Shown here piece after piece: positions 29,284-59,929 of a stretch of 64,000 nucleotides of DNA. Source of the stretch: a virus. Its lineage: Duplodnaviria; Caudoviricetes. The stretch lies in IMG/VR virus record IMGVR_UViG_3300028591_000082, one strand, 5' to 3'. The notes below the pieces were generated by a model, which saw nothing but the letters and a program-made list of their open reading frames with translations, searched no databases and was not told where the DNA came from. Positions within the stretch are counted from its first letter, which is position 1. Each line of letters begins with the position of its first letter. The position numbers were made by a program, and so were the translations under genes.

Positions 29284-30771
29284 ATGTTAGAAAATAATTT
29301 CGTTATAAAGGAAGAAGTTGAGAAGGAGCTTGCTGGACGTTGGGATTGGCTTACAGAAGACATTGCAGACGCAGAAGAAAAACTTAATACTCAGATCGTT
29401 CTCGAAAGCTCATACCACGAAATGGTAAAAAATGGTTCTCTTCCAAGAGGCTGGCTCGAAGAACAGCTTAATGAAGAGGGAGTTCTTACAGAAGCTCCAC
29501 AGATGTCTGGTGCAGTTGGTGACTACGTTATCCCTAAGGTAATGTTCCCAATGATTAGACGTGTTATGCCTGATTTGATTGCTAACAAGCTTGTATCAGT
29601 ACAGCCATTGTCAGCACCAACTGGTGTAATTTACTATATCGTTAACAGCTACTCTAATAACAAGGGTAATATTAAGGCTGGAGACGAATTCTCTGGAAAC
29701 CCAATGCAGACAACTCCTGCTTATGGTGTATACTACTCTTCTGAGAAAGTAGGTCCATTCATCAAGGAAGCTCCTGCTGGTGATGTAACATTCACAGCTG
29801 CTGAACTTCAGTCAGTTTATGACTTCTTGGCAGATGGCGACCAGCTTAAGAGATTTGAAGTATTCGATAAGGTAGCAGGTAGAGCAGTTGACTCTTCAGA
29901 TGCTTTCGCTGCATATGGAAATGTAATTGATAGCTCAAAGGATATCACAATTGATGCTTCAGCTTTCAAAGAAAATGCTGACGGAAATGTTGTAGTACAG
30001 CTCTTCGTTGTATACAACCAGGAAGGTTCTTCAAAGATCCCAGAAATGGAATTTGGTATTGAACATCAGAACATCAGCACAACTGAACGTAAGTTGAAAG
30101 TTAGATGGACAAAAGAAGCTGAACAGGATATGATGGCTTATCATAAGATTAACGTAGAACAGGAACTTGTAAAAGTTGCTGCTATTCAGATGAACTACGA
30201 AATCGACCGTGAAGTTATGAACTTCATTGATGACCACATCATCCCAGAACTTAGATTCGAACACAACTGGATCGATGATCTTGCAGCTACTGGACAGAAC
30301 ACACAGGGTAACTACCTTGACAGACATCGTTGCTTGGCTCAGCATATGTACCAGATTGCAACAAAGATTGCAGAATTCAACCACATTGCTCCAGCTGATT
30401 GGATGGTTTGTTCTCCACAGGTAGCAGCTGTACTCCAGATGCTCCCAGATTGGAAAGCAGGTGAAATTGCAGGTGCTAAGACAACATTCTACAATGCTGG
30501 ATTCCTTTCAAATGGAACAATGGCTGTATATGTTGATCCTAACAGAGTAGGAGCACAGGCTTACGAAATCACACTTGGATACAAGTCAAAGGATTCTACA
30601 TATGGTGCTGGTGTAGTTTACTCACCATATGCTAACTGGATGTCTAGCACAGTTGTTAATCCAGAAAACTTCAACAATGTTCGTGGAACATTTACAAGAT
30701 ATGGATTGACACTCTGTCCACGTGGACAGTACAACTATGCTACAATCAGAATTGACAACTTGGCAATCTAA
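29284..30771 (+). CDS. gp23: Major capsid protein, T4 gp23 family
   Basis: PMIRRVMPDLIANKLVSVQPLSAPTGVIYY, RKLKVRWTKEAEQD, EIDRE, GVVYSPY and TRYG motifs; LTE/A maturation site. Confidence 0.95.
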   Translation: MLENNFVIKEEVEKELAGRWDWLTEDIADAEEKLNTQIVLESSYHEMVKNGSLPRGWLEEQLNEEGVLTEAPQMSGAVGDYVIPKVMFPMIRRVMPDLIANKLVSVQPLSAPTGVIYYIVNSYSNNKGNIKAGDEFSGNPMQTTPAYGVYYSSEKVGPFIKEAPAGDVTFTAAELQSVYDFLADGDQLKRFEVFDKVAGRAVDSSDAFAAYGNVIDSSKDITIDASAFKENADGNVVVQLFVVYNQEGSSKIPEMEFGIEHQNISTTERKLKVRWTKEAEQDMMAYHKINVEQELVKVAAIQMNYEIDREVMNFIDDHIIPELRFEHNWIDDLAATGQNTQGNYLDRHRCLAQHMYQIATKIAEFNHIAPADWMVCSPQVAAVLQMLPDWKAGEIAGAKTTFYNAGFLSNGTMAVYVDPNRVGAQAYEITLGYKSKDSTYGAGVVYSPYANWMSSTVVNPENFNNVRGTFTRYGLTLCPRGQYNYATIRIDNLAI

Positions 30772-32260: not shown

Positions 32261-32261
32261 A

Positions 32262-34903: not shown

Positions 34904-34907
34904 AAAG

Positions 34908-34934: not shown

Positions 34935-34951
34935 AGTTTGGAGGAAATATA

Positions 34952-35284: not shown

Positions 35285-35286
35285 TC

Positions 35287-36489: not shown

Positions 36490-36502
36490 GAGTATCGTTG
36501 TA

Positions 36503-37252
36503 ATGTTATTATCAATTGTAATACCATTCTGCGACAATGATTATAAGCTCCTTGATAGAGCTATAAATTCTATCAGGGAGCATATTAAATTCAATGATTA
36601 TGAAATTGTTGTTGTAGATAATAGGGAAGAAAAAAAAGAAGAAAAAATCTCATTAGAAAACATAAAAATCATTTCAAAAGGATATAATTTTTATACATTT
36701 GAAAGTAGAAGGTTTGGGTTTCAAAATTCTACTGGTAAGTTTATTTGGAATTTTGATGCTGATGATGAAATGATTGGTGATTTGTTTGAAGAAGATATTA
36801 AAGAAGATTATGAGTTTCTTCAAATGTATTATTTGCATGATGAAAAAACTAGACCAAAACCAATTCCACTTTTAAAAAGATACAACCCATCATTATTTGG
36901 GCCATGCGTTTGGTCTAGATTATATAGAAGAGATTTGTTGGAAAAGATTTATACAAGATTAGAAAAACCAATAATAGTACCAAAATTTGAAGACAGAATT
37001 CTTTTTGACTTTGTGCTATCTTATAATCCAAAATATGAATATATAGAAAGACCAATTTATATGTACAACCATTCAGTTTCTACAACTAATACAAAACTTG
37101 TAGAAAGGGTTGACAAAATTGGAATAGGCGGATACGATTATCCTTATGAAGTTTTAGGTAAACCTAATGCTGCAGAAGATTTAAAAAGAAGAGTAGGAAT
37201 TATATGTCAAAATTTGAAAAGGAACAGACGTTTCAATACCCAGATGTGTTGA
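36503..37252 (+). CDS. Glycosyltransferase family 2
   Basis: LSIVIP...YEIVVVDN, RRFG, FIWNFDADD (DxD), VWSRLY and ED motifs. Confidence 0.9.
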   Translation: MLLSIVIPFCDNDYKLLDRAINSIREHIKFNDYEIVVVDNREEKKEEKISLENIKIISKGYNFYTFESRRFGFQNSTGKFIWNFDADDEMIGDLFEEDIKEDYEFLQMYYLHDEKTRPKPIPLLKRYNPSLFGPCVWSRLYRRDLLEKIYTRLEKPIIVPKFEDRILFDFVLSYNPKYEYIERPIYMYNHSVSTTNTKLVERVDKIGIGGYDYPYEVLGKPNAAEDLKRRVGIICQNLKRNRRFNTQMC

Positions 37253-37992
37253 TAGCTGGATATGGTATAGTTGGAAAACATTTAAAAGAAGAATTTCCAT
37301 TTGCAAAAACTTACGATCCAGACAAAGGTCAAAAAGCAGATTATTTTAGACCACCAAAAGATACTTATGATATTGCATTTATAGCAGTACCAACCCCAAA
37401 CGATGAACACTTTTTTTGTAATACTTCATATGTTGAAAAAGCAATAGAAGAAATAGATGCAAAGATTTATGTTATAAAATCTACAGTACCTCCAGAAACA
37501 ACTTCTAAGCTTTCTGCTAAATATGGGAAAACAATATTGTTTTCACCAGAATATTATGGTAATACACAGTTTGCTTTAAAGCCAGATTTTGTAATTATTG
37601 GTGGAAATTTTAAAGCTTATCACGAAGTAAGACAATTATATGAGCTTATTAAATCAGCAGACTTTAAATTTTATCATTGTAGTTCTACAGAAGCAGAGAT
37701 TATTAAATATATGGAAAATTCTTTCTTGGCAATGAAAGTGATTTTCTGCAATCAATTTAAAGATATAGCAGATCTTTATGGTGTAGATTATGATAGAATA
37801 AGGGATGGATTTATTCTCGATAAAAGAGTTGGTGAATCTCATACTTTTGTGTTTGATGATTACAGAGGATATGATAGCAAATGCTTAAATAAAGATATTC
37901 CAGCTTTTTCAAGTGCCGTTAAAGAAAAAGGATTTAATAAACAATTTATAATGGATGTTGTAGAAAACATAAATGATGGTTATAGAAGTTAA
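37204..37992 (+). CDS. ugd: UDP-glucose/GDP-mannose 6-dehydrogenase family, short form lacking the C-terminal domain
   Basis: AGYGIVG, FIAVPTP, KSTVPP, SPEY, AEIIKYMENSFLAMKV and KCLNKD motifs. Confidence 0.85.
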   Translation: MSKFEKEQTFQYPDVLIAGYGIVGKHLKEEFPFAKTYDPDKGQKADYFRPPKDTYDIAFIAVPTPNDEHFFCNTSYVEKAIEEIDAKIYVIKSTVPPETTSKLSAKYGKTILFSPEYYGNTQFALKPDFVIIGGNFKAYHEVRQLYELIKSADFKFYHCSSTEAEIIKYMENSFLAMKVIFCNQFKDIADLYGVDYDRIRDGFILDKRVGESHTFVFDDYRGYDSKCLNKDIPAFSSAVKEKGFNKQFIMDVVENINDGYRS

Positions 37993-38007
37993 TCTAAGAG
38001 GTATAAA

Positions 38008-38838
38008 ATGACAGAGATTTACTATATAACACAAAATGGTGAAAAAGTTTATCTAAAAGATGCAACTGGACGTGAACTTCTAGCCTCTAAGCAGACAAAA
38101 TTAAAACCAGGAAATGGAATTTCCATTGCTGAAGATGGAACTATTTCTGCTACTGGCGGTGGTTCTGCTAAAGGCTTTTTTATTAATGCAAGTGGCACTT
38201 TGAATAATTTATCTTTTGATAAAACACCATTAGAATTAAATGATGCAATTGATAATAATAAAGTTGTAATTGTTAAAGTAAATAATGCAAAATTTATTTT
38301 AACAGACAAAAAAGATGATACTTATCTTTTTAGTTACTTGGTAGCTTCTGACGAAGAAGATGCTGTTGCTCAATTAGCAACAATATATGCTAAAGGAACA
38401 AATAGTTGGCAAGAAATAAAAACAAGATTTGTTTCTATTAAAACTTCTGATGGAATTGAAACTGGAGCCACAGCAGAATGTGATGGAGATGTTGATTTTT
38501 CTACATTTGAAGATTTTGATGAAGACAGTATTTCAATCTATGGAAATAAAGTGGAAGAAGAGGGTATAATTTCTAATATAGAACAAAGATATTATGATTC
38601 ATCAACTGGAAATTATATAGATCCAAACGATTACAATACAAATGTTAATATCGATGAAGATGATATAGTCGATGAAGAAACAAACAAAATAATAATAGAT
38701 AATAAAAAGTATTCAATAGCTGATGAGTATGCTAGAGAAGTATATGAAACATTACAGGATACATTTGTTTTATCTGACGGTTTTGTTATTTCTGAAGATG
38801 GAGAATTGTCTTTAAGTGAGGAGGTTGGAAATGAATAA
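38008..38838 (+). CDS. Appendage adaptor with module C at both ends
   Basis: N-terminal YITQNGEKVYLKDATGR...GNGISIAEDGTIS, C-terminal IIIDNKKYSIADEYAR...DGFVISEDGELS, and an internal DFST motif. Confidence 0.65.
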   Translation: MTEIYYITQNGEKVYLKDATGRELLASKQTKLKPGNGISIAEDGTISATGGGSAKGFFINASGTLNNLSFDKTPLELNDAIDNNKVVIVKVNNAKFILTDKKDDTYLFSYLVASDEEDAVAQLATIYAKGTNSWQEIKTRFVSIKTSDGIETGATAECDGDVDFSTFEDFDEDSISIYGNKVEEEGIISNIEQRYYDSSTGNYIDPNDYNTNVNIDEDDIVDEETNKIIIDNKKYSIADEYAREVYETLQDTFVLSDGFVISEDGELSLSEEVGNE

Positions 38839-40519
38839 ATTAAATAATTCATTTAAGGTTTTTTTGGATAATGTTATTAAACCATTATTAAAAAAACATA
38901 ATAGTATGAACTATAAAATGGATTATGCTGATGGTTCATATAATTCTTTTAAAACATCAACAACATTTGGAGAAATAAATTATAGTGATCCAAAGAGAAA
39001 TAAAATAATTAAAATATCAGATAAAGACAAGGCATTATTTGAATGTAATTATTTAGCAGGTAGTGACTCATCATTTAGCAGTTTAAATACCAGAAACAGT
39101 TATAAAAAAGTAAAAGAAATCGAAGGACTAAAAGATTATTCATTTATTGTAAATGATGGAGTTAGTGGAAGATATATGTTTGTAAAGTGCTTCCCTAATG
39201 GCGGAAAAGTATATGTTACTATAACAGATAGTAGTTATAATATTTTAGTTGATTATTTGGAAGTTCCAACAAAAATTATTAAATATTTAGGCAGTACTGG
39301 TAAAGCTGGTGACGGTTCTTGGAACTCTTCTCTTGAATACTATTGTTTTTTGGGTTATGAATATGAATCTATAACTGGTGGAAGTATAACACGATACCAA
39401 TACATTTTTTTAAATAGATCAAAACTATTTAGCGATGATCCACAAACTATTCTTCAGGCTTTTGAAGAAGCAAAAGAATATAGAATAGATAATAGTAATC
39501 TTGGAGAAGGAGTAGAAGGAGAAGAATTAGGAAAATATCAAGATTACTATACTCTAACTTATGATACATATGCAACTCTTCAAAGCGGTTTTATTAGTAA
39601 TTCTTATGCACATGGTATATTATATATAGTAAGATTTATTGAAAAACGTCAAGGGTCAGGTTCTTTTGATGGTATAATAAGAGCTGTTGGAACTGTTATA
39701 GATTTTGTTAAGAACCAAGACGGAACAGATGTAGTAATGAATATTTCAGAAAGAGTTTTAACAGAATTACCAACATTTAGAGCTGATGCTTATGGTCATC
39801 ATGTACCAAGAGTTGCTTTTGCAAATGTAAGTTCTTATGATAGCAATAAAACAGGAACTGTAACAATATTCTATGGTAAAAAACTATATGTTTCAGGATT
39901 CCCAAAAGTAGAGGTTGGAACTGCAATAACAGCAGTACCAAGTTTTACAGAATATACTACTACAGCAGAAGGAGATTTCCAATCAGTTGCTAATCTTGGT
40001 CGTAATTATAACACATCATATGATAGTGTATTCCTTGTAGCTGATTCTTATGGTAATATCTATACATACTCTACTAACTATAATACAACAGTAACATTAT
40101 TAAAATCTAAAGATGAAACAAAAAAGTATCATAATTTTAATTACAAAAATTTACAAAACTTTAGTGGTGCTTGGATAACAGATGGTAGTTATGTTACTAG
40201 AGATTTGGTTACTTGGTATCCATTATCAAAAAAGACAAATTTACCAAATGGAAATTATAATGATGGAAATTATAGTATAAATTATATAGAAGGAAGAGTA
40301 ATATATGAACTCAATATTGATAAACTTATAAGTGCTGAAACTAGTGGCAATATAAGTTGGATAAAATATAATTTATTGTACAATAACAGTAATTACTATC
40401 AAAAAGAGAAACCAATCAAAAAATTAACATTCTTCTATACACAAAATAAAATACCAATGTTAAACTCAATTAATTTTACTATAGAAGATGATAAATATAT
40501 TATAAATAATAATTATTAG
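38831..40519 (+). CDS. Module B plus large beta-rich domain
   Basis: MNKLNNSFKVFLDNVIKPLL start; TRDLVTW Asp-box-like motif; Tyr/Asn-rich. Confidence 0.6.
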   Translation: MNKLNNSFKVFLDNVIKPLLKKHNSMNYKMDYADGSYNSFKTSTTFGEINYSDPKRNKIIKISDKDKALFECNYLAGSDSSFSSLNTRNSYKKVKEIEGLKDYSFIVNDGVSGRYMFVKCFPNGGKVYVTITDSSYNILVDYLEVPTKIIKYLGSTGKAGDGSWNSSLEYYCFLGYEYESITGGSITRYQYIFLNRSKLFSDDPQTILQAFEEAKEYRIDNSNLGEGVEGEELGKYQDYYTLTYDTYATLQSGFISNSYAHGILYIVRFIEKRQGSGSFDGIIRAVGTVIDFVKNQDGTDVVMNISERVLTELPTFRADAYGHHVPRVAFANVSSYDSNKTGTVTIFYGKKLYVSGFPKVEVGTAITAVPSFTEYTTTAEGDFQSVANLGRNYNTSYDSVFLVADSYGNIYTYSTNYNTTVTLLKSKDETKKYHNFNYKNLQNFSGAWITDGSYVTRDLVTWYPLSKKTNLPNGNYNDGNYSINYIEGRVIYELNIDKLISAETSGNISWIKYNLLYNNSNYYQKEKPIKKLTFFYTQNKIPMLNSINFTIEDDKYIINNNY

Positions 40520-40530
40520 GAGGAAATAAT

Positions 40531-41187
40531 ATGACAGAAATTAAATATGCTACAGTAAAAAGAGATTATAAAGAAGATGAAAAAGTTTACTTTGCAGATG
40601 AAAAACTTAGAGGTGAACTTGACAAAAAACAAAAAAAAATAACTGTTGGAAGAGGTCTGAGGCTAAATGGAAATGTTCTCTCACTTGCAGACAATATTGG
40701 TGGTGGAAGCAACTTTAAGTATTTTACAATTGATGGCTTAAAAGCTAGTGGATTATATGAAGGTTCAGAGCCTTTTGAAGGAGCTGAGTGTTCAAAGCTT
40801 ACTGTAGAGTGTGCTTATGTAGGAAACCCAAAAGTTTATATTGACTATATAGATGCTGGAGATTTTTCTTCTGATAGTTATAACAACAGATGTTTTAGTT
40901 TTATTAATGAAGTTAGTGATGAAGAAGTAAATATGCAAAAAGCAAGAGAAGTGCTAGCTACTCTTGGAGATAGTGGCGAAGACTTTTTCTGCATACTTCC
41001 AACAAGAATAATATCTGGTGAATTTATAAGAATAATGCATGGTATCCAAGATGATGGATTTGAAGCATGTATTTTTGCGCCATGGTATTATGATTCTTAT
41101 GGTGTTAAGCAAACAAGAGAAAGTGTACAACCATCAAGAGATAAATCAGAAATTATACCAGTTATTTGGGAACAACTTGCAAATTAA
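40531..41187 (+). CDS. Appendage protein (module C variant)
   Basis: MTEIKY...KVYFADEKLR..LDKKQKKITVGRGL, plus a YxGNP motif similar to those in 44024 and 44808. Confidence 0.6.
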   Translation: MTEIKYATVKRDYKEDEKVYFADEKLRGELDKKQKKITVGRGLRLNGNVLSLADNIGGGSNFKYFTIDGLKASGLYEGSEPFEGAECSKLTVECAYVGNPKVYIDYIDAGDFSSDSYNNRCFSFINEVSDEEVNMQKAREVLATLGDSGEDFFCILPTRIISGEFIRIMHGIQDDGFEACIFAPWYYDSYGVKQTRESVQPSRDKSEIIPVIWEQLAN

Positions 41188-41915
41188 TGATTCTTAGTGT
41201 CGTAATACCTTTTTGCGATAATGATTATCAATTCCTTAATGGAGCAGTTAGCTCCATTAAGGAACATATTAAATTTGATGATTATGAAATTATCGCAGTA
41301 GATAACAGAGAAAAAAATAAGTCTCAAATAGATATTAACAATGTTAAAATTGTTTCAAGCGGGCACAACCTTGGCTGCTTTGATGGACGTCGCTTTGGCG
41401 TTTCACATAGCCAAGGCGTTTTTATCTGGAACTTTGATGTAGATGATTTAATGGTCGGAGACCTTTATAGAGAAGATATTAAAGAAGATGCTGATGTTAT
41501 GCAAATGTATTATATTTATAACACAGGCCCAAGATATGATCAAAAAATGTTCCCTGTAGCATATGGTGTTAACGTTTGGTCTCGTTTGTATAAAGCAGAG
41601 ATTGTTAAAAATTTTTATGCCAAATTAGAAAAACCTATAAAAATTTTTATGAGAGAAGATTCTTTATTATTTGATGCTGTGTGCGGAACAGCTAAAGTCT
41701 GGAAATATATACCAAAAGTTATATATGAGTACAACTTTAAGAATGCTAGGTTTAATAAATATAACAAAGGTAACAACAAAAAATCTAAAATGTCCGAGCA
41801 GGAAGCAAAAGAAACCTATGAGGGTTATAAATATATTTATAATATCTTAGGGACACCAGAAAAAGCAGATGTTTTATTCAAAAGAGTAAAAGAAATAACT
41901 GAACGAGGATACTAG
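41187..41915 (+). CDS. Glycosyltransferase family 2, paralog of 36503
   Basis: MILSVVIPFCDNDY, FIWNFDVDD and VWSRLY motifs; TAATG coupling. Confidence 0.9.
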   Translation: MILSVVIPFCDNDYQFLNGAVSSIKEHIKFDDYEIIAVDNREKNKSQIDINNVKIVSSGHNLGCFDGRRFGVSHSQGVFIWNFDVDDLMVGDLYREDIKEDADVMQMYYIYNTGPRYDQKMFPVAYGVNVWSRLYKAEIVKNFYAKLEKPIKIFMREDSLLFDAVCGTAKVWKYIPKVIYEYNFKNARFNKYNKGNNKKSKMSEQEAKETYEGYKYIYNILGTPEKADVLFKRVKEITERGY

Positions 41916-41972
41916 ACATAAGAGTATAAACCATCGATATGTAAAAATTAAGTTAATCATAGGAGAAAAACG

Positions 41973-42326
41973 GTGAGAACAATTACAGTCGAAAAAATAG
42001 ATGGTGAATATAAAGTAAATACAAAAGCAAAAGCAAGCGCTGGTTCAAATATAGCTTATGCTTGGGTAGAAGAATACGGAAGAGTGTATTACACTAGCTT
42101 TGATATAGCACCTGAACAGGATGCAGCTGAAAATGAGTTTATGCTAGATAGTGATGATTCTGAAACAGGCATACTTGTAAGGGGATTACTGTATGATGCT
42201 CCTGGTTATGGTATTGAGTATACCAAAATAAGTGATACAGAGTTTTCTCTGGTTAATGAAGCAGAAGGTCGTACATTTACAAGAGACAGTACCAAAGATT
42301 TCACATTATGGGAATTGTCTAATTAA
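41973..42326 (+). CDS. Appendage protein (module D)
   Basis: MRTITVEKIDGEYKVNTKA identical to 42696; AAGTTAA at 41950 plus AGGAG. Confidence 0.6.
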   Translation: MRTITVEKIDGEYKVNTKAKASAGSNIAYAWVEEYGRVYYTSFDIAPEQDAAENEFMLDSDDSETGILVRGLLYDAPGYGIEYTKISDTEFSLVNEAEGRTFTRDSTKDFTLWELSN

Positions 42327-42341
42327 TTTTGGTGGTTAGCG

Positions 42342-42668
42342 ATGCAAGGAAAAACAAATAGTGTAGTGAATTTAACTGGCTTATATTGTTGGGTAAACAG
42401 AAAAACTGGTAGTAATATAGCCTACTTTTATACTCTTTTTGAAAAACCAGAAATAAATGATATAATTTTTCAACAAAGTAATCTTAGCTCATCCACTAAC
42501 AATAAAAAGCCATATGCAACAACTATTGATAGATGGGTTGGGAAAATAAATAGTGACGGATCTATAGAAAGCTGGTATAATGGCGCCCCTTCTGGAGATC
42601 CATATGATAGATGCCCAGAATATGATATTGGAAAAACCTGGGGAGTTTTTAGACCAAAGCATGTTTAA
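42342..42668 (+). CDS. Small appendage-array protein
   Basis: LYCW echoes the AYAW/FYAW motif of the module D neighbours. Confidence 0.5.
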   Translation: MQGKTNSVVNLTGLYCWVNRKTGSNIAYFYTLFEKPEINDIIFQQSNLSSSTNNKKPYATTIDRWVGKINSDGSIESWYNGAPSGDPYDRCPEYDIGKTWGVFRPKHV

Positions 42669-42695
42669 TTTTTAAGATAGTTGCAGGAAAAAACA

Positions 42696-43535
42696 ATGAG
42701 AACAATTACAGTTGAAAAAATAGATGGTGAATATAAAGTAAACACAAAAGCAAGTTCTGGAGCTAAAGAGAATACTATAACTTTTTACGCTTGGCAAGAG
42801 CAAAATAAAAATAGCGAAGGTGGACCTGATAGTATAAGCAACAACCTTTCTAGAGGATATGGAAGTGAAAATGTTCATGGGCAAGGAATTATATTCTTTG
42901 ATTTTGATGTTAGTCCACAAACAAGAGAAGATTTAATACAATCACATATTCTTTATCAAGGAGTTGTTTATGATTTTTCAGATTATTTTGAAAGAACAGC
43001 TCATAATCCGACAACAAATATTTTTAATTATGAAGTTGCTAATGATGGTTTAATTAAATTTGATTACTACTGGAGTAAATACAACACACCTGTACAATTT
43101 GCTAGATATGCTTTAGTTGATAATATTGAATATAAGATTTCTGATTTTAAAGCAAGCAATACTGCAACTGTTTATGGATATGATCCGTCAACTGGATATG
43201 TTGGGCAAAGTAGCCAAAGAGATCATTCTGAATATTATATGTTTATAAATGCCGATGGTTCTATTGCAACTAAAGATGATTTTTCAAATGTAAATCTTAT
43301 AATTCGCGGCGGTGCTATTGGTGGTTCACAAGATATATATTATAAAGGATTAAAACCAGAATTATATGCATCCGAAATGTATGAATTCATAAACATAAAT
43401 GTTGAAGATACAAATGATAACGGAGAGGAAGAAATTATAATATCTGTTAAAGACTCTTCAGATATTGAAATTAGTAGCAGGGCTACAAATGTTTCTGCTA
43501 TTCAGCTTATGCTTCAAGGATATTATGGAGGTTAA
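42696..43535 (+). CDS. Appendage protein (module D)
   Basis: Same 19-aa N-terminus as 41973 with an unrelated C-terminus; ends in YGG like 34952. Confidence 0.6.
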   Translation: MRTITVEKIDGEYKVNTKASSGAKENTITFYAWQEQNKNSEGGPDSISNNLSRGYGSENVHGQGIIFFDFDVSPQTREDLIQSHILYQGVVYDFSDYFERTAHNPTTNIFNYEVANDGLIKFDYYWSKYNTPVQFARYALVDNIEYKISDFKASNTATVYGYDPSTGYVGQSSQRDHSEYYMFINADGSIATKDDFSNVNLIIRGGAIGGSQDIYYKGLKPELYASEMYEFININVEDTNDNGEEEIIISVKDSSDIEISSRATNVSAIQLMLQGYYGG

Positions 43536-43538
43536 TAA

Positions 43539-43958
43539 ATGAAGTTTATAACTTTAAATAGTTTAAATAAAAACTTAAAGATTTTTTTTAGAAATATAAT
43601 TAGTCCAAAAATAGAAGAAGCTAAAGAAACAGCAGTAGGTGCTTTAGCATTAGCAGAACAAGCAAATGAACTAGCATCTGAAGAAAAATTAATAGTTGTT
43701 AAAGGAACAGATATTGACGAAGTTGAGTTTGTGCAAGATGAAACTTATGATGATTATCCATATAAAGCTTCTATTAGAGTTAGCAAAGTTACAGAAAATT
43801 TTTCACCAGATGTAAGATTTGGTCCACAAGATGCTATGAGCGGCAATCTTGCTCCCTTCGCTGATACTGTTGATGGTTATGTAAACATTTATTCAAAAAC
43901 AGATGATGGTCTCATAGAACAGAATTTATTGGCAATTATATTAACAAAAAGTATTTAA
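43539..43958 (+). CDS. Appendage adaptor (module B)
   Basis: MKFITLNSLNKNLKIFF; DYPYKASI...PDVRF...SGNLAP is a tail-associated domain pattern. Confidence 0.6.
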   Translation: MKFITLNSLNKNLKIFFRNIISPKIEEAKETAVGALALAEQANELASEEKLIVVKGTDIDEVEFVQDETYDDYPYKASIRVSKVTENFSPDVRFGPQDAMSGNLAPFADTVDGYVNIYSKTDDGLIEQNLLAIILTKSI

Positions 43959-44023
43959 GTTAATATACTTGAAAAAAATGAGATATGAAGGTGTTTAAAT
44001 TATTTTTTAAATAGGAGATATAA

Positions 44024-44797
44024 ATGACAGAAATTAGTTATATTACACAAAATGGTGAGCAGATAAATCTTAAAGATGCTGCTGGTAGAGAAATGTTAGC
44101 ACAAAAACAGCCTAAGCTTAAAGCTGGTAAAGGAATTACAATTTCACCCGCTGGAGTAATTAGCGCTGTTGCTGGTAGCGATAGGGTTAAAACAATCGTA
44201 GCAGAAGATGTAGAAGTTAACGAGTATTCTTCTTGGACAGATTTTACATTTGATGTTGTGGTTGATTATATTGGTAATCCAGCATTAATATCAAAACCTC
44301 ATGCTATGTTAAGCGAAAGCGCATCAGCCACTTATAACTTTGAAGATGGATATATGATGGAAATAGGAATAAAAAATGCGCCTGATTTTAATAGTTGGCT
44401 TGGACATACTTTTAATGCAGCTATTAAAGAAGAGATGCTTAAAGAACCAGCCACAGATGACGACTTTTTGATTATTTTCCCAAGAAAAGCTATTACTAAA
44501 TCTATTGTTTCAAACACTGAAGGACATGATGTATATGTTCCAGCAGGAGTTCCTGAAGAAAACAATGAATCAGATCTTAGCGTAGTTTATATTTACTTTA
44601 AAGATATTGGTAAAGAAGACTATCCTATGAATGCTTATACATTTTTTGAGTATGCTGATGATAGCGAACATGATATTTACAGTATGGAATCATCTTACAG
44701 TTGGTCTTATATAAATAGTGATGGTGAAGTTGATTATATTACAAGTCCTTCTGAATATTCAATTTTAGCCATGATGATTAAAGATCTTTTGAAGTAG
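44024..44797 (+). CDS. Appendage protein (module C)
   Basis: MTEISYITQNGEQINLKDAAGREMLAQKQPKLKAGKGITIS. Confidence 0.65.
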   Translation: MTEISYITQNGEQINLKDAAGREMLAQKQPKLKAGKGITISPAGVISAVAGSDRVKTIVAEDVEVNEYSSWTDFTFDVVVDYIGNPALISKPHAMLSESASATYNFEDGYMMEIGIKNAPDFNSWLGHTFNAAIKEEMLKEPATDDDFLIIFPRKAITKSIVSNTEGHDVYVPAGVPEENNESDLSVVYIYFKDIGKEDYPMNAYTFFEYADDSEHDIYSMESSYSWSYINSDGEVDYITSPSEYSILAMMIKDLLK

Positions 44798-44807
44798 GAG
44801 GTATAAT

Positions 44808-45590
44808 ATGACAGAAATTAGCTATATAACACAAAACGGACAGCAGATAAATTTAAAAGACGCTGCAGGTAGAGAAATGCTTGCAACTAAACAATCAAAG
44901 CTTAAAGCAGGTAAAGGAATTAATATTTCTGATAATGGAGTTATTTCAGTAAAAGATGCTAAAGGTAGTGATTTTAGTGATCTTGTTATTGAAAATATTC
45001 AAGTAACAACAAGTGATGAAGAATATACATATACAATAGGCAGTATGAATGTTAAGTATAAAGGTAATCTTTCATTGCTTAAGGATGTAATAGACTCTTC
45101 TGAATCTTCAGGAAATTTTTATTTATTGACTTCTATCCTTGACGATAGTTATATAAGAGAACCACTAAACAAGTATGCAAGTTTTTATGATGGTGAAAAT
45201 TCTTTAGGAAAAGTTGTAAGCGTTGCTATTAATAAACTTATTGCAAATGGAGATTGTGAAGATACAGGTGAAGATTATCTTTATTTTGTACCAATGACTA
45301 TTAACAACGTAAATCCTGTTGGTGGTGAAAGACTTCCAAACAGTCAATTCCATATTGATGAAGAAAGTTGTAATATGATCATTGCCCTTAAAGATGCAGA
45401 TTATAGTATAAATATTGCTGAAGAAGAAGAACACAGAGGCGATATTCCTGCTGACTATGACAGTAATCGTTTGGTAGGTGCTTATATTGCTTCAAAAAGC
45501 GAGTATGTAGATTTGTATGAATTCTATTCTAACAGTTACGGTACTGATGGAAGAGAAGGAATATTTACAGAACTAATGGCACTTCTTTAA
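44808..45590 (+). CDS. Appendage protein (module C)
   Basis: First ~48 aa nearly identical to 44024; the remainder diverges. Confidence 0.65.
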   Translation: MTEISYITQNGQQINLKDAAGREMLATKQSKLKAGKGINISDNGVISVKDAKGSDFSDLVIENIQVTTSDEEYTYTIGSMNVKYKGNLSLLKDVIDSSESSGNFYLLTSILDDSYIREPLNKYASFYDGENSLGKVVSVAINKLIANGDCEDTGEDYLYFVPMTINNVNPVGGERLPNSQFHIDEESCNMIIALKDADYSINIAEEEEHRGDIPADYDSNRLVGAYIASKSEYVDLYEFYSNSYGTDGREGIFTELMALL

Positions 45591-45609
45591 ATAAAAAAGA
45601 ATTATTAAT

Positions 45610-45638
45610 AAAAGCCAATTCTTAAGAATTGGCTTTTT
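45610..45638. terminator. Bidirectional terminator between convergent genes
   Basis: AAAAGCCAATTCTTAAGAATTGGCTTTTT palindrome. Confidence 0.85.
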
Positions 45639-45641
45639 AAA

Positions 45642-46184
45642 TTATTTTACCGAACAACTAATAGTTGGACTTCTACAGTTATGACAATCAACACAAGTAT
45701 TGCACCCAGTGCAATTATTACAAGAATCACATTTACTATCGCAGGTTTTGCAGCCATGTTTTCCAGTACAGCTATCGCATGAATTGCATCCAGAACAATT
45801 AGTTGAGTTTTGACAATTAGCATTGCAATCAATGCATAATCTACAATCTGTGCAAGTAGTTGAGTTTTGACAATTAGCATTGCAATCAATACAGCTAACA
45901 CACTCATCAACACATCTAAAACATAAATAAGTTTGAGCATTTACATTACAGGTATAAAATTCTATATTATCTATAAAGGATCCTGTTTTTTTTACATTTG
46001 AATTTTCTATACCACTTGGAGTAAAGTCTGTTAAATTACTTGTATCAAAAAATATATGTTTTGGGTTTTTATTTTCAGATATTAAAGTTCCACTATCTTT
46101 AAGATTATTAGAATTCATATATAAGAGATATTTATTATTTTCTTCAAGGCTTATTCTATCTGATATTTTTCCTATTGTAATCAT
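45642..46184 (-). CDS. Cys-rich repeat protein 1 (CxxC repeats)
   Basis: C-terminal ~100 aa has Cys every 3-4 residues; paralog of 46823; contains an internal exact duplication (45801-45833 and 45858-45890). Confidence 0.75.
   Translation of the reverse strand: MITIGKISDRISLEENNKYLLYMNSNNLKDSGTLISENKNPKHIFFDTSNLTDFTPSGIENSNVKKTGSFIDNIEFYTCNVNAQTYLCFRCVDECVSCIDCNANCQNSTTCTDCRLCIDCNANCQNSTNCSGCNSCDSCTGKHGCKTCDSKCDSCNNCTGCNTCVDCHNCRSPTISCSVK
45913..45959 (-). repeat. 47-bp inverted repeat, left copy
   Basis: Reverse complement of 47036-47082 with 2 mismatches and a 30-bp perfect core. Confidence 0.9.
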
Positions 46185-46199
46185 ATTTATATTCCTGTA

Positions 46200-46787
46200 T
46201 TAGCTATTGCCGCCCATACATACACCACCTTGACATCCAGTAGTACATGCTCCTTGACAATCTGCTGCACAAGCACTGTTACATCCATTGCAAGGTGAGC
46301 AAGAAGGTCCTGGTGTTGGTGTATTGCTACATTGGGCAGCAAAATGACAGCCATTATTACATCCACTATTGCAGTTATTACAACTTACACAAGATTTTTG
46401 ACATCCATTGCAGGTTACACATTTTCCTGTACAATTTGTGCAGGTATCACAATCAGTAGTACATGTTTGACAGCTATCACAACTTTGGCAACTATTACAT
46501 CCAGTGCAATTATCACATGCTGTACATCCACTATCACAATTTGCGCAATTATTACAAGAAGTACAATTATTACAAGAAGTGCAATTATCACAAGTAGTAC
46601 AATCTACACAGTTATTACAGTTATAAAATATTCTGTTGCCATTAAAATATACATAATCATCTTTAAAAATTAAGTTTTTAACATTATTATTTTTTATAAA
46701 ATTTATTCTATCCTGCTTTATTTCTATTTTATCAAATAATGAAGAATAATAAGAATTAAATTGCATTCTTTTTGCCAATGTAATCAT
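46200..46787 (-). CDS. Cys-rich repeat protein 2
   Basis: Long CxxCxxC run ending CAADCQGACTTGCQGGVCMGGNS; leaderless start at the palindrome. Confidence 0.75.
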   Translation of the reverse strand: MITLAKRMQFNSYYSSLFDKIEIKQDRINFIKNNNVKNLIFKDDYVYFNGNRIFYNCNNCVDCTTCDNCTSCNNCTSCNNCANCDSGCTACDNCTGCNSCQSCDSCQTCTTDCDTCTNCTGKCVTCNGCQKSCVSCNNCNSGCNNGCHFAAQCSNTPTPGPSCSPCNGCNSACAADCQGACTTGCQGGVCMGGNS

Positions 46788-46825
46788 AAAATTAACTTAA
46801 AGTTTAACTTTAAGTTAATTTTATG
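46785..46825. promoter_or_regulatory. Perfect 41-bp palindrome: back-to-back AAGTTAA promoters from start codon to start codon
   Basis: CATAAAATTAACTTAAAGTT-T-AACTTTAAGTTAATTTTATG. Confidence 0.85.
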
Positions 46826-47275
46826 GTACTAATTGGTGGAACAAATATTGGTTTTGATGACGAAAACAATTTAGTATATTTAGGAAACAAAAGAAACTCA
46901 GGAACTGAATTAATACACGAAAACGCAAATGAAGTTTTCTTCGACAATAAAAATGTTCCAAATATTACAGATATTACACAAAATAACAATAATATAGAAT
47001 TAATAAATACAGCAAGTTTTATAAATGATGCTAATTTTTATACATGTAATGCAAATGCTCAAACTTATTTATGTTTTAGATGCTTTAATAGTTGTGTATT
47101 ATGTGTTAGTTGCAACACTTGTGATGCTTGTAATGACTGTACTAACTGCACCAGTAATTGCAATACTGGATGTGACTCTATATGTTTTGATAGATGCCAA
47201 ACCTGTGTTAATTGTACTACTTGCAATAACTGCCAAAGTTGTGATGGTTGTTATAAACATAGTAATATTAAATAA
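46823..47275 (+). CDS. Cys-rich repeat protein 3
   Basis: FYTCNANAQTYLCFRC followed by CxxC repeats. Confidence 0.75.
   Translation: MVLIGGTNIGFDDENNLVYLGNKRNSGTELIHENANEVFFDNKNVPNITDITQNNNNIELINTASFINDANFYTCNANAQTYLCFRCFNSCVLCVSCNTCDACNDCTNCTSNCNTGCDSICFDRCQTCVNCTTCNNCQSCDGCYKHSNIK
47036..47082 (+). repeat. 47-bp inverted repeat, right copy
   Basis: TTTTATACaTGTAATGcAAATGCTCAAACTTATTTATGTTTTAGATG. Confidence 0.9.
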
Positions 47276-47296
47276 AAGTTAATATAGGAGATAATT

Positions 47297-47965
47297 ATGA
47301 TTAAAGCGCAAATAATTATAGAAATGACAGATGGTCAGCTTTATACATATGTAAATAGCCATCTTGCAGATAAAGCAGAAACAGATAATAATGGAAATTA
47401 TATATTCAAAGGAGAGCCTGGAAAATACTATATGTATACAGGTGAAGATGGGGATGAATATGATGACCAAGATTCTGCTGGAATGGCAAAAGCAGATTAC
47501 GAAGCACTTTTAAGTGATGCTGCTGGAACATCTGGATACCTTCATTTTCCTGATGGATATGATGAACTTCTTATTCCAAGAGATAAAGAAATAAACAATG
47601 AAGATGCTTTTACAAGAGTAAAGCTCCCAAGAGAAAATGTAAAATCAATTAAACTTGTAGAAACACATGTTGTTTATCCTTTTGGTAGACCAAGTACAGA
47701 TTATGTTGCAAAACCTCCAAAAATGGGAGAACTTTATTCTATTCCAAAAGAAGTTAAAACAACTTATGACAGATATGTTTCAATGCCAGTTGTAAAAGAA
47801 AATAAGGTAAATAATTTTAATGATTTTGAATTTGTTTACTACAGAAAACCAAAAACAGAACAGTGGATTGAAATTGATAATGAAAACTTTACAGTTGATT
47901 TTGACTGCGAACTTGTTGGTGAAATAAACGGAATTAAAGGCGGGGTTTCATTTTATAAGGCTTAA
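47297..47965 (+). CDS. Hypothetical late protein
   Basis: AAGTTAA at 47276 plus AGGAG SD. Confidence 0.55.
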   Translation: MIKAQIIIEMTDGQLYTYVNSHLADKAETDNNGNYIFKGEPGKYYMYTGEDGDEYDDQDSAGMAKADYEALLSDAAGTSGYLHFPDGYDELLIPRDKEINNEDAFTRVKLPRENVKSIKLVETHVVYPFGRPSTDYVAKPPKMGELYSIPKEVKTTYDRYVSMPVVKENKVNNFNDFEFVYYRKPKTEQWIEIDNENFTVDFDCELVGEINGIKGGVSFYKA

Positions 47966-47968
47966 TAG

Positions 47969-48559
47969 ATGAGTTTTTATTCTTCTATAATAAATTGGAT
48001 GAGGGGGCTTAGAAAAAACAATGGCTCTCTTTATGTAGATGGAAACAAATATGTTTTCGGTGCTATCGTATCTGGTAGCTATCAAAATGCCAAGACAGAT
48101 AACAATCCAACATTACTCTGTCTTGGCAATTATTTTGACCAAAAAAATAATAATTGGAAAGTTCACGGAATTCAATTTCATCATTTAAATCCATACGATT
48201 TGCAATGGTTATTACAACAATTAATTATTTGGAAAAAGAATGGAGCAATTATAGACCCACGCTCTTTTTATAATTACTTGAAAAGTTCACATAAAGAAAT
48301 AATAGATGCTTACAGAACATACCATACAGAACTTACTTCTTTTAAAGTAATATCTCCAGGAATTTCAAATGTTTCTTTTGAAAATTGTTCTGCTCCGTTT
48401 GATTCTAGAGATGGTATTATAAATCAATTTAATCAATTTATAAGAAATCCATCTGAACTTTCTAACTATCATCAAGCTTCTGAAGTACAACAGCAATATG
48501 ATGTCCAAGAACTCAATATGCGTGTTGCAGAAACAATTAACCAAAGAAAACTATGGTAG
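47969..48559 (+). CDS. Possible DNA end-protector protein (T4 gp2-like)
   Basis: D.NPTLLCL...HGIQFHHL...AYRTY loosely resembles the gp2 D..PL...G.NLHYL...Y pattern. Confidence 0.4.
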   Translation: MSFYSSIINWMRGLRKNNGSLYVDGNKYVFGAIVSGSYQNAKTDNNPTLLCLGNYFDQKNNNWKVHGIQFHHLNPYDLQWLLQQLIIWKKNGAIIDPRSFYNYLKSSHKEIIDAYRTYHTELTSFKVISPGISNVSFENCSAPFDSRDGIINQFNQFIRNPSELSNYHQASEVQQQYDVQELNMRVAETINQRKLW

Positions 48560-48943
48560 CTCAGCTTCAACATCTTTAATCAAATTGGTGTGTTCTTTAA
48601 AGAACGGTTCTTTACTAAGAAGCTCTTCTTCGTCAGTTGTTCTTTTTATAAGACATTCAATAAGTCTAAAAATAAATAATCTTTTTACATACCTTTGTGA
48701 TTGCTTTAATGTTTTATTATAGCGATTATCAAAAGCTTCTTTCTTCTCAAGATAATCATCTTCTCCAACATGATCTCTTATCCAAGCACAAATACAGTCT
48801 TGATATTTTTTGATAAAAGATGTAGTGCCTTTTGTTATTACTAAATTGTATTTTAAGAATTTTAAATAATATTTTTTAAATAAATAAATAGATATTGCAA
48901 TAACCACAAACGCAATTATTGCAACTGCTATACTTTTTTCCAT
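48551..48943 (-). CDS. Membrane-anchored hypothetical protein
   Basis: N-terminal hydrophobic helix and its own sigma70 promoter. Confidence 0.6.
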   Translation of the reverse strand: MEKSIAVAIIAFVVIAISIYLFKKYYLKFLKYNLVITKGTTSFIKKYQDCICAWIRDHVGEDDYLEKKEAFDNRYNKTLKQSQRYVKRLFIFRLIECLIKRTTDEEELLSKEPFFKEHTNLIKDVEAELP

Positions 48944-48960
48944 ATTTTTTCCTTTTATTT

Positions 48961-48989
48961 ATTATACTATAAACTTTAGTATAAGTCAA
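48961..48989 (-). promoter_or_regulatory. sigma70-type promoter
   Basis: TTGACT-N17-TATAAT on the minus strand. Confidence 0.85.
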
Positions 48990-48990
48990 T

Positions 48991-49017
48991 AAAAAGGCTG
49001 GCGATAGTTTGCCAGCC
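48991..49017 (-). terminator. Terminator of the flagellin transcript
   Basis: Minus strand GGCTGGC-aaactatc-GCCAGCC-TTTTT. Confidence 0.8.
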
Positions 49018-49071
49018 ACAACTTTTTTATTTATGCCACAGGTGAGAAACCCACTCAAACCTCACCAGGCT

Positions 49072-49920
49072 CTACTGTAAGAGCGCTAATACACTTTGAG
49101 ATTGTGAGTTTGCTTGACTAAGCATTGCTACAGCAGACTGACTCAAAATCTGATTTTTTGTATATTCAACCATTTCCTGAGCAATATCTGCATCACGAAT
49201 TCTTGATTCAGCAGCTTGAGTATTCTCTGCGGCTACATTGATTCCTTTCTGTGCCATTTCCATTCTGTTCTGGTAAGCACCAAGATCAGCACGCTGTTTG
49301 TTAACATTTTTCAATGCTTCATCAAGAGTAGCAATTGTTAAATTTGCTTCATCTGGTGATGAAATAGAAATTGTGTTTTCATCACTCTGTAATCCTTTAA
49401 GCCCAAGTGCTGAAGCAGTCATTGTTCCAATATATGCTCTTATGTTTTGATCGCAGTTTGCACCTACTTGGAACTGCATTACAGTATCAGACTCTCTTGA
49501 GAATTTACCAGTAAGCAATGACATTCCATTAAACTGAGCAGAAGAAGCAATTCTGTCTACTTCAGCTACAAGCTGACTTACTTCTACCTGAATTTGCATT
49601 CTGTCTTCGTCTGAGTAAACACCATTTGAAGCCTGAACTGCAAGTTCACGAATTCTCTGAAGAACATCTGTTGTTTCTGAAAGATAACCTTCTGCTACCT
49701 GTACGAATGAAACAGCATCTCCAATATTTCTTGAAGCCTGATTAAGACCTCTAATCTGAGATCTCATTTTTTCAGAAACCGCAAGACCGCTGGCATCATC
49801 ACCAGCTTTGTTAATTCTTTCACCACTTGAAAGTTTTGACATTGAGTTCTGTAAATTTGCGGCATTAATGCCTTCTTGGCGTGCTGCAAACATACTAGAT
49901 AAATTGTGATTTATAATCAT
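49072..49920 (-). CDS. flaB: Flagellin, spirochete FlaB (periplasmic filament core) type
   Basis: [68 protein letters not shown] and [10 protein letters not shown] motifs; 282 aa with no D2/D3 domain. Confidence 0.97.
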
Positions 49921-49924
49921 ATTA

Positions 49925-58945: not shown

Positions 58946-59929
58946 CTACATAGATTTTAAAACTTTTTCAAAATATTTTAAAAGTTTACTATTATCAATT
59001 CCTTCTGCTTTTGTTTCTTTTAAATATTTTGTCATTCCAACACTAACACTTTCTGTAGAAGATATTGTATGAACTCCAACATCTTGTGGAGTTTCTTCTT
59101 TTATAAATTCTGGTTCTACAGAAATACAGCCTTTAGAATACATTATGTCTCTAAGTTTTACAAAATTTTCAACTTTTTTAGATATTCTGATTGTTATCAT
59201 TTTATTAGAAAAATCTAAATCTTCATTAAATTGCTCTGCGTTTATTATCATATATTTTGGAGCATCTTCGTATCTTACAAGTTCATAAGTTGCTGGTCTA
59301 TCTGGCTCAGCATAGACCACGCAGAAATAATTTTCTTTACCCATTTCATCTTTTCGTGTTTCGTATGGAGAACCAATAAAAAGCATATTTTTTCCTTCTT
59401 GCTTTTTGTGTAAATGCCCAGAAACTACAAGTTCATAATTTTCAAATAAATCTTCTGTAAAAAGAGAACCTTCAACTTTTTTCTTGGCATTAAAATAATA
59501 ACCCTCTACTTCAAGATGTCCAAATAAAATTCTTCCTTCGTTTGGAATATCAGATACATCTTCTGTGTAAGCTAAGAAATCACAAGGAACTCCATCTATA
59601 TCTATTGTTTGAGATTTTTTAATAAAAGTTGAGAATGCACAGAATGTTTCTGCAAGACAATCATTATCATTTGACATTATATCATGATTGCCTGGAAAAA
59701 CATAAAGATGAAATTCTTTGCTCATTTCAAATAATTTCATAAATACAGGAACAAATGCCTGATTTTTTATTGAATTTGCTGTGTCGAAAATATCACCACC
59801 AAAAATAATATTTGGAATATTATGTTCTCTACAATATTCTTGCAAATAATCTAAGAAGTTTAGTCCTTCCATAATTCTTATATTATTTTTTGCCGTGAAA
59901 TGTAAATCACTACAAAATGCTGCTTTCAT
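58946..59929 (-). CDS. gp47: Recombination nuclease, gp47/SbcD/Mre11-like
   Basis: SDLH, GGDIFD, PGNHD, SGHLH and IGSP motifs. Confidence 0.95.
   Translation of the reverse strand: MKAAFCSDLHFTAKNNIRIMEGLNFLDYLQEYCREHNIPNIIFGGDIFDTANSIKNQAFVPVFMKLFEMSKEFHLYVFPGNHDIMSNDNDCLAETFCAFSTFIKKSQTIDIDGVPCDFLAYTEDVSDIPNEGRILFGHLEVEGYYFNAKKKVEGSLFTEDLFENYELVVSGHLHKKQEGKNMLFIGSPYETRKDEMGKENYFCVVYAEPDRPATYELVRYEDAPKYMIINAEQFNEDLDFSNKMITIRISKKVENFVKLRDIMYSKGCISVEPEFIKEETPQDVGVHTISSTESVSVGMTKYLKETKAEGIDNSKLLKYFEKVLKSM

Follow-up and report, generated by a model that had tools for sequence, protein, structure and literature searches.

We analyzed a viral DNA stretch of 64,000 nt (IMG/VR record IMGVR_UViG_3300028591_000082; Duplodnaviria, Caudoviricetes), hereafter the window, which encodes a flagellin of spirochete type in the midst of phage genes. 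The flagellin gene, flaB, is an unbroken open reading frame (ORF) on the minus strand, preceded by a promoter-like element and a hairpin leader and followed by a second hairpin and a terminator. We found that flaB is an intact, phage-borne flagellin of the FlaB3 type evolving under purifying selection. Rather than an isolated capture, the gene is part of a clade known only from phages and present across several unrelated lineages of jumbo phages. The viruses carrying this gene probably supply or rebuild the swimming organelle of their host.

49072..49920, minus strand: flaB, a 282-amino-acid (aa) core flagellin of FlaB3 type, member of a phage-only clade with a Glu16 signature (from the ORF, Pfam, trees and substitution rates)

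The protein matches the Pfam domains Flagellin_N (PF00669) over residues 3-139 (E = 1e-42; 146 bits for a cut-off of 26.6) and Flagellin_C (PF00700) over residues 197-281 (E = 1e-25; 90 bits for a cut-off of 23). Since a short linker is all that separates the two domains, the phage FlaB lacks the outer D2 and D3 domains. Its length lies within the range of spirochete core flagellins (about 280-290 aa, with D0 and D1 only) and its closest solved relatives are spirochete filament flagellins of 284-286 aa (E = 1e-111 to 1e-115), with Leptospira FlaB1 matching at 3e-85. The identity to Treponema FlaB reaches 70-76%. Among species-representative genomes, the best matches were found in Treponema and other Spirochaetota (69-76% identity) and the exceptions were mis-binned contigs. 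A preliminary description of this DNA had reported that a T4-like phage carries an intact FlaB of spirochete type, and had taken its MIINHN start and its size of about 285 aa as typical of Treponema FlaB. The unbroken ORF, the two domains and the phage flanks agree with the first statement, and the product, 282 aa long and starting with MIINHN, agrees with the second. The GenBank phage records that match flagellin are at most 45% identical to the phage FlaB: most of them are human faecal contigs labeled "Bacteriophage sp.", short fragments or a Bacillus record, and a spirochete FlaB is encoded by none of them. The protein also matches phrog_16088 (E = 2e-51), a flagellin-like PHROG of phage and prophage records with unknown function.

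The genomes of Treponema contain three FlaB paralogs, two in tandem and one elsewhere. In the naming used for T. denticola, flaB1 (286 aa) and flaB3 (285 aa) are the tandem genes, in this order, and flaB2 stands apart (PMC9481697). All 14 FlaBs found in a phage context formed a single clade in a tree of 79 sequences (SH-aLRT, the Shimodaira-Hasegawa-like approximate likelihood ratio test, of 99). This clade is nested within the host FlaB3 group (support of 100), and the 286-aa tandem partner and the third paralog branch separately from that group. The sister of the phage clade (support of 84) is L065, a genuine Treponema chromosome as indicated by its full host synteny. Treponema thus appears to be the best inference for the host, in line with the Treponema-like host proposed earlier. 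The phage gene does not occupy the chromosomal position of FlaB3 in the flaB1-flaB3-fliD cluster, and its flanks share nothing with the flanks of Treponema flaB genes. Two metagenome-assembled genomes contain short contigs with a related capsid gene (73% nucleotide identity), which constitutes weak evidence of co-binning.

The phage clade expanded when we added sequences. In a tree of 280 sequences, the top further metagenomic matches all fell inside it (116/116) and no genome-derived Treponema sequence did. Metagenomic proteins 84-90% identical to the phage FlaB are abundant, and each of those whose context was examined lies on phage-like DNA: P0006 and P0012 adjoin genes for Gp23 and DNA polymerase III; P0088 is carried by a 592-kb contig of small unannotated ORFs; P0117 by a 222-kb scaffold that also encodes a type IB topoisomerase, NrdD and thymidine kinase; P0068 by a 366-kb contig; and twelve IMG/VR loci by viral contigs of up to 386 kb. 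The clade is represented by more than 100 metagenomic protein clusters, occurs on several unrelated phage backbones and is strongly selected.

We estimated the ratio of nonsynonymous to synonymous substitution rates (dN/dS) for pairs of sequences with the Nei-Gojobori method. The values between phage genes (0.066-0.19) are similar to those between host orthologs (0.07-0.13), and the comparison of the window with L081 yielded a dN/dS of 0.11 at a dS of 0.83. When six phage pairs were pooled, dN/dS was 0.19 in ND0, 0.08 in ND1, 0.11 in the middle region, 0.04 in CD1 and 0.14 in CD0. Since these values range from 0.04 to 0.19, every one of the five regions is under constraint, including the D0/D1 parts that serve export and polymerization.

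One residue distinguishes the phage proteins from those of the hosts. Glu16 is present in 128/128 members of the main phage clade and in none of 152 genome-derived Treponema FlaBs, of which 143 present Leu. Met220, Ser26 and Phe11 are also fixed or nearly so in the phage clade, although each is found in some host paralogs. Glu16 consequently provides a sequence signature to tell phage and host FlaBs apart in metagenomic data. The preliminary description had suggested, among other roles, that the protein could poison the filament. We considered that the change from Leu16 to Glu could disrupt assembly in this way, but position 16 is occupied by G, Q or L in the solved filament flagellins of spirochetes. 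This idea found no support and was dropped.

The gene could also be a recent passenger, or the product of a chimeric assembly, without function for the phage. The GC-content of flaB is higher than the mean of the window (respectively, 38% and 30%), and de Bruijn graphs break inside the gene, which is explained by the conservation of flagellin. The runs that contain this DNA are gut metagenomes of sheep, goat and bovine origin. In the probable source run, one contig covers positions 47500-49297 and another positions 49809-51600, both without differences, and overlapping short contigs fill the interior of flaB at a depth of 20-24, equal to that of the flanks. In a goat-gut run, a contig spanning 49715-50178 bridges the 5' junction of the gene. 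A 3.2-kb contig filed separately in ENA, whose sample may be the same, shows this gene order again, with an identical flagellin and unchanged neighbors. Bins left uncovered in other runs carry no meaning. Both junctions of flaB are bridged at even depth. The position of flaB is also kept in divergent relatives, the phage clade is monophyletic and free of host sequences, dN/dS remains within 0.07-0.19, the GC-content at third codon positions (GC3) lies between that of ordinary phage genes and that of the capsid gene, and the regulatory regions are unlike those of host flaB3. Chimeric flanks and relaxed selection, which the preliminary description had named as the outcomes that would undo its reading, were thus not observed. 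We rejected the passenger or chimera explanation, which is scarcely tenable.

The phages with this clade of flaB differ in their capsids. The lineage of the window, which has a Gp23-type capsid protein, comprises the window itself, L081, L084 and L126-L128. No homolog of its capsid protein was detectable in G303, G305 and G306, and G304 yielded only a distant Gp23 match. One of the three flaB-carrying viral records without this capsid homolog is a complete genome of 300,878 bp with terminal repeats. Vertical descent within one phage family is therefore unsupported, and we dropped the idea of a shared phage backbone. The simplest reading is that the gene was captured once and then spread among phages sharing their hosts. 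Synonymous sites are near saturation between subclades, which blurs the direction and the timing of these events.

Genes related to FlaA accompany flaB, beside it or nearby, in several of the other lineages. Pfam FlaA was found in L094 and L098, and profile matches were obtained in L086, L115/L116, L092 and L117; in G305, the FlaA-like copy is located about 50 kb from flaB. With a custom FlaA profile, neither the window (64 of about 222 kb) nor the available flanks of flaB in L081/L084 yielded a match, and the loci of the capsid lineage, L126-L151, gave none either.

Three of these records deserve separate mention. The contig L059 (JAZNWZ010000130.1; 306,108 bp) was binned as "Candidatus Fimenecus" (Bacillota). 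Its proteins correspond gene for gene, with up to 97% identity, to those of the IMG/VR loci L094 and L095, and in all likelihood L059 is a jumbo phage of their lineage that was placed in the wrong bin. The 592,065-bp contig L086 carries FlaB P0088, 85% identical to that of the window, together with a FlaA-like gene, and nearly all ORFs within 8 kb are small and unannotated; L086 may represent a megaphage of Treponema. Finally, L115 (16086-17771) and L116 (17750-19435) encode a topoisomerase IB of eukaryotic type (Topoisom_I_N, Topoisom_I and Topo_C_assoc domains), which is found on the 222-kb flaB-carrying scaffold.

The sequences that surround flaB contain the following elements:

49948..49974, minus strand: sigma-28 (FliA)-type promoter-like element, TTAAGTTA-N11-TCCGATAA, overlapping the stop codon of a 66-aa ORF
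49925..49942, minus strand: hairpin of the 5' leader, AUGCGC-AAGGAG-GCGCAU, with the Shine-Dalgarno sequence and its GGA in the loop (predicted fold of -8.4 kcal/mol, z = -2.9)
49035..49070, minus strand: hairpin of the 3' untranslated region (UTR), with a loop ending in GAGUGGGUU, directly after the stop codon (predicted fold)
48990..49017, minus strand: intrinsic terminator, GGCUGGC...GCCAGCC followed by a U-run (hairpin and run at 49017-48996), bidirectional (predicted fold)

The spacer between the 66-aa ORF and flaB measures 50 nt. We defined sigma-28-type elements by their closeness to TAAA-N15-GCCGATAA upstream of a gene, and the element of flaB is the sole match of this type on either strand of the window. 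Similar elements were found upstream of flaB in L084, L088, L089, L090 and L094, that of L089 being a perfect CTAAAGTTT-N11-GCCGATAA. The preliminary description had assigned to flaB its own promoter and terminator. The terminator, with its hairpin and T-run, is confirmed, and a promoter-like element is indeed present, but of the sigma-28 rather than the sigma-70 type; the leader of CsrA type comes in addition.

In this leader, the GGA lies in the hairpin loop and overlaps the Shine-Dalgarno sequence. It thereby resembles a CsrA site, a pattern described in flagellin leaders (PMC13418256; PMC9481697). The leader hairpin of L081/L084, ACCC-AAGGAG-GGGT, presents a compensatory change of the stem with the same loop, and one or two hairpins with an AAGGA loop are also found in the leaders of L093, L094, L090, L098 and L127, as well as in the leader of host flaB1. 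The flaB3-type genes of the hosts have a long and differently structured leader, and a sigma-28 motif was found within 320 nt in none of 79 loci. Sigma-28-like motifs are displayed by host flaB1 and flaB2. For T. denticola, flaB2 is known to be driven by sigma-28, and CsrA sites are located near the Shine-Dalgarno sequences of flaB1 and flaB2 (PMC9481697).

In T. bryantii and T. parvum, fliW-csrA is located about 6 kb from the flaB locus. Three large phage records with flaB, of which two are rated complete, yielded neither CsrA, FliW nor FliS, and no sigma factor was found in the complete G305. A phage-encoded sigma-28 was considered and dropped, because the lone sigma factor found in a relative (G304) is a generic RpoD-like protein and not FliA. 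With fliW-csrA in the hosts and none of these regulators in the searched phage records, the phage flaB appears to be wired to the late-flagellar control of the host.

The 3' hairpin is another shared element. Its loop motif GAGUGGGUU occurs once in the window, and hairpins with the same loop but wholly different, compensatory stems follow flaB in L081/L084, L086, L090, L094/L095/L059 and L127. The presence of the same 3' element in unrelated phages supports a common origin of the cassette. In host flaB3 genes, the conserved 3' hairpin is of another kind, and its loop reads UUCUGGAUGUC. No Rfam family matched either the flaB leader or the 3' hairpin. The leader and the 3' hairpin of the phages provide two compact candidate regulatory RNA elements.

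The host genes show conserved structures of their own. The long 5' leader of the flaB3-type genes of Treponema (L001-L080) contains conserved hairpins with the loop GGGGCGCA, and their 3' hairpin (AAGAGAU-UUCUGGAUGUC-AUCUUUU) has a loop resembling a CsrA site. It is possible that these host leader and 3' hairpins are uncatalogued cis-regulatory RNAs.

The CsrA-type leader raises the alternative that flaB acts as a regulatory decoy: the phage flagellin or its leader would titrate FliW, FliS or CsrA in the host cytoplasm and thereby reprogram the CsrA regulon or stop the synthesis of host flagellin, instead of providing a subunit for the filament. Besides the AAGGAG hairpin itself, the occurrence of fliW-csrA in hosts and their absence from the three searched phage records are compatible with such a role, and for B. 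subtilis and Borrelia it is established that flagellin, FliW and CsrA switch partners (as cited in PMC9481697). A decoy, however, would need only the C-terminal part that binds FliW/FliS, or the leader, yet all five regions of the protein are constrained, including ND0 and ND1. The secreted FlaA-like sheath partner encoded in other lineages also points to a periplasmic filament rather than to the cytoplasm. The constraint over the whole length disfavors the decoy, which we regard as unlikely.

The protein database places the phage flagellin on a contig of 222,619 bp. We scanned about 53 ORFs of the window against Pfam or PHROGs, and the main features found around flaB are listed below:

29284..30771, plus strand: major capsid protein of the Gp23 family (Pfam Gp23, E = 2e-56; phrog_138)
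49971..50171, minus strand: small protein of 66 aa, zinc-ribbon-like in its two CxxC pairs, encoded immediately upstream of flaB (ORF without family match)
50173..50721, minus strand: conserved 182-aa neighbor of unknown function, with a homolog upstream of flaB in related phages
56792..59929, minus strand: gp46/gp47-like (SbcCD-type) pair of recombination nuclease genes (Pfam AAA_23/SMC_N and Metallophos)

The capsid protein and the baseplate genes (T4_baseplate, PF12322, E = 9e-19; Gp10_C; baseplate wedge, phrog_219) place the window, distantly, among T4-like phages. Since no GenBank phage has a capsid protein more than 30% identical to that of the window, the term "T4-like" is valid at the level of protein families only. 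The window also encodes a P2-I-like tail protein and a tail fiber that bears an endosialidase chaperone domain, together with a helicase, a dUTPase, a PTH2 peptidyl-tRNA hydrolase and a DNA methylase. No tRNA was found in the window, and the scanned ORFs of this stretch (64 of about 222 kb) include no integrase or host junction. The preliminary description had presented flaB as a lone flagellar gene among phage genes. This is the case within the window: no second flagellar gene was found among the scanned ORFs, in agreement with the FlaA profile search.

L081 (165 kb) and L084 (234 kb) are related phage contigs, which share with this locus the gene order gp46-like, dUTPase, 178-aa gene and flaB. 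FlaB is 90% identical between the window and these two loci, the capsid protein 63% identical and the other shared proteins 38-53% identical. Specifically, the first gene of the gp46/gp47-like pair shares 38% identity with an SMC-like gene that precedes flaB in L081/L084, and the 182-aa neighbor is 52-53% identical to their 178-aa ORF. The 182-aa protein matched no Pfam or PHROG family and yielded only viral hypothetical proteins in the protein Atlas; the 66-, 130-, 196- and 222-aa neighbor genes likewise obtained nothing from PHROGs, Pfam and the Atlas.

In L081 and L084 the capsid gene and flaB abut, and in the window they are separated by an 18-kb block (30872-49000). Besides many genes of unknown function, this block contains two glycosyltransferases of family GT2 (36503-37252; 41166-41915), a fragment resembling UDP-glucose dehydrogenase (37204-37992) and, at 30872-31900 and 32891-34342, two proteins with CHB_HEX_C/Fn3-associated domains. 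At 45642-47275, three paralogous small ORFs (180, 195 and 150 aa; both strands) share an N-terminal domain followed by extended runs of repeats of CxxC type (e.g., CNNCTSCDNC), and their sole match is a weak PHROG of unknown function. The PTH2-type peptidyl-tRNA hydrolase gene (51116-51580) is located about 1.2 kb from flaB. A PTH2 gene is also found two genes away from flaB in an unrelated lineage (L117, 11136-11606, and a 366-kb NCBI contig).

The proximity of flaB and the capsid gene suggests another possibility, namely that the flagellin fold was recruited as a part of the virion or as another structural component of the phage, such as fibers or decoration. The two genes abut not only in L081 and L084 but also in L127 and L128, where the flagellin has diverged rapidly, and the substitutions Glu16, Met220 and Ser26 are fixed in the phage clade. 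However, flaB is convergent to the capsid gene, with its own promoter-like element of host flagellar type and no phage late promoter, and its identity to host FlaB is maintained at 70-76% over the full length, termini included. Moreover, flagellin polymerizes only after export, whereas virions are assembled in the cytoplasm. We give little credence to a structural role in the phage.

With moderate confidence, we instead propose that the phage produces an isoform of FlaB for export and incorporation into the periplasmic flagella of the host. Host RNA polymerase with sigma-28 would transcribe flaB from the promoter-like element of the 50-nt spacer. The AAGGAG of the short leader is predicted to be displayed in a hairpin loop, so that the CsrA/FliW checkpoint of the host would gate translation. 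The flagellar type III apparatus of the host would then export the phage FlaB, which would co-polymerize with host FlaB1-3 in the periplasmic core. By keeping up the supply of subunits or by shifting their mix, the phage could alter the swimming or the shape of the infected cell in its favor. This mechanism is plausible given three lines of evidence: the three FlaBs of T. denticola are interchangeable in the filament (PMC9481697), the FliC-P flagellin of an Enterobacter prophage substitutes for host flagellin and changes motility (PMC13418256), and FlaA-like genes lie beside flaB or elsewhere on the same phage in other lineages. In T. denticola, FlaB3 is a minor subunit, with a FlaA:B1:B2:B3 ratio of about 1:0.7:0.6:0.2 (PMC9481697).

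Among the roles put forward in the preliminary description, incorporation into the filament with a change of motility is the one that best fits these data. The same description had mentioned an effect on TLR5 signaling. Flagellin freed at lysis could alter this signaling in the ruminant gut, to the benefit of phage or host; the phage FlaB does contain the TLR5-type segment, and the prophage FliC-P lowers TLR5 activation (PMC13418256). The segment is nevertheless identical to that of host FlaBs, the flagella of spirochetes are periplasmic, and no selective route is apparent from TLR5 to a lytic phage. Such an immune role lacks specific support and is highly improbable.

Several observations weigh against the incorporation of phage FlaB into host flagella, or against parts of this reading. 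The IMG/VR phage L092, 385,934 bp long and rated complete, has a flaB (10001-10848) with a frameshift past about codon 43, which represents either a pseudogene or an assembly indel. A fast-diverged sister copy, a 281-aa flagellin 63% identical to the FlaB of the window and with Ala16, is encoded beside the capsid gene in L127 (3887-4714) and L128 (6053-6880). The capsid protein of these two loci is 64% identical to that of the window, and their flagellin gene shares the 3' hairpin of L081 and has a leader with two AAGGA sites. The frameshift and the divergence imply that some lineages can do without flaB or can alter it. The putative promoter and CsrA site were called from sequence matches: about 0.7 sigma-28-type motifs are expected per shuffled window, and no recognizable sigma-28 motif was found upstream of flaB in L086, L095, L098 and L115-L117. 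In a sheep-gut metatranscriptome library, contigs cover 49025-49181, 49850-50000 and 49975-50737, but contigs from an RNA library cannot prove that the locus is transcribed, and the greater depth inside flaB may stem from other flagellins. The host assignment rests on the flagellin tree and on habitat: a search for spacers of clustered regularly interspaced short palindromic repeats (CRISPR) with the DNA of window positions 20001-40000 against 301 Treponema genomes, a link that the preliminary description had looked to, gave AT-rich noise and no clean spacer-like match. Finally, flagellar filaments are stable, and the gain from a simple resupply of subunits within a single lytic cycle is not obvious.

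These results indicate that flaB is a real feature, well supported as a selected phage gene, and that the mechanism suggested by its sequence is plausible. We can tentatively envisage a broader scenario, in which the cassette as a whole (sigma-28 promoter, CsrA-type leader, Glu16 FlaB and 3' hairpin) forms a mobile "motility takeover" module that passes between unrelated jumbo phages of Treponema. It would rebuild the periplasmic flagellum with an over-supplied, phage-specific form of the usually minor subunit FlaB3 and, in some lineages, with a phage FlaA sheath, and would thereby alter how infected cells swim or are shaped. If true, a virus of lytic type would direct a bacterial motility organelle through the late-flagellar checkpoint of the host itself. 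Spirochete flagella lie in the periplasm and also shape the cell. The benefit for the phage could reside in the upkeep of subunit supply, in an altered swimming or cell shape, or in something else. This raises the testable question of whether viruses maintain or remodel the motility organelle of their host during infection, and for what purpose. In addition, flaB constitutes a host marker for a group of phages without cultured members.

The closest known counterpart of the phage protein is the FlaB3 of Treponema (T. denticola TDE1475, 285 aa). Both consist of D0 and D1 only, with about 282-285 aa and a MIINHN start, and the phage protein is 70-76% identical to the orthologs of rumen and gut Treponema, among which it is nested with a support of 100. 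They differ in that the gene is encoded here by a phage and not in a host flaB1-flaB3-fliD cluster, and in that the phage proteins form a separate clade with Glu16 where most hosts have Leu. In addition, a short sigma-28-type promoter and leader stand in place of the long structured leader of the host, and the 3'-UTR hairpin is unlike that of the host.

To our knowledge, phage-encoded flagellin has been shown experimentally only in temperate enterobacterial prophages. The FR-phi prophage of Enterobacter encodes FliC-P together with the RNA-guided repressor TldR (Walker et al. 2026, PMC13418256), and the enterobacterial prophage flagellin was presented in 2026 as the first known example (PMC13418256). 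FliC-P differs from host FliC mainly in the outer domains D2-D4, and it relies on the adjacent TldR, a nuclease-dead TnpB-like protein, and a guide RNA (PMC13418256). No TnpB/TldR-like gene was found in the window (tblastn with E-values of up to 10 returned only noise) and the scanned ORFs contain no OrfB or TNB domains. In another lineage, a 441-aa TnpB (L115, 8628-9953; HTH_OrfB_IS605, OrfB_IS605 and Cas12f1-like TNB domains) is inserted 47 nt upstream of flaB, and the sister contig L116 is devoid of this insertion. This TnpB keeps the D-E-D triad of RuvC, with intact GID, VEDIN and DRDINAA motifs, and although its position beside flaB recalls TldR-fliC, it is not nuclease-dead. Our full-text searches, whose coverage left out most subscription journals, found no literature on flagellin in spirochete or jumbo phages.

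In both systems, the phage encodes a flagellin isoform of its own that is expected to become part of the host filament and to alter its properties, and both involve a CsrA-type control of the flagellin leader. In contrast, FR-phi is a temperate siphovirus and the phage described here is a T4-like jumbo phage; its host is a presumed spirochete with periplasmic flagella, and its flagellin is reduced to the core, without outer domains. Phage-encoded flagellin is thus already known, and what is new here is a Gp23-type lineage without visible FlaA, the Glu16 signature, a putative wiring of sigma-28/CsrA type and the 3' hairpin. The same idea appears in a very different setting, that of jumbo phages, T4-like and others, which are uncultured and belong to spirochetes of the gut and rumen.

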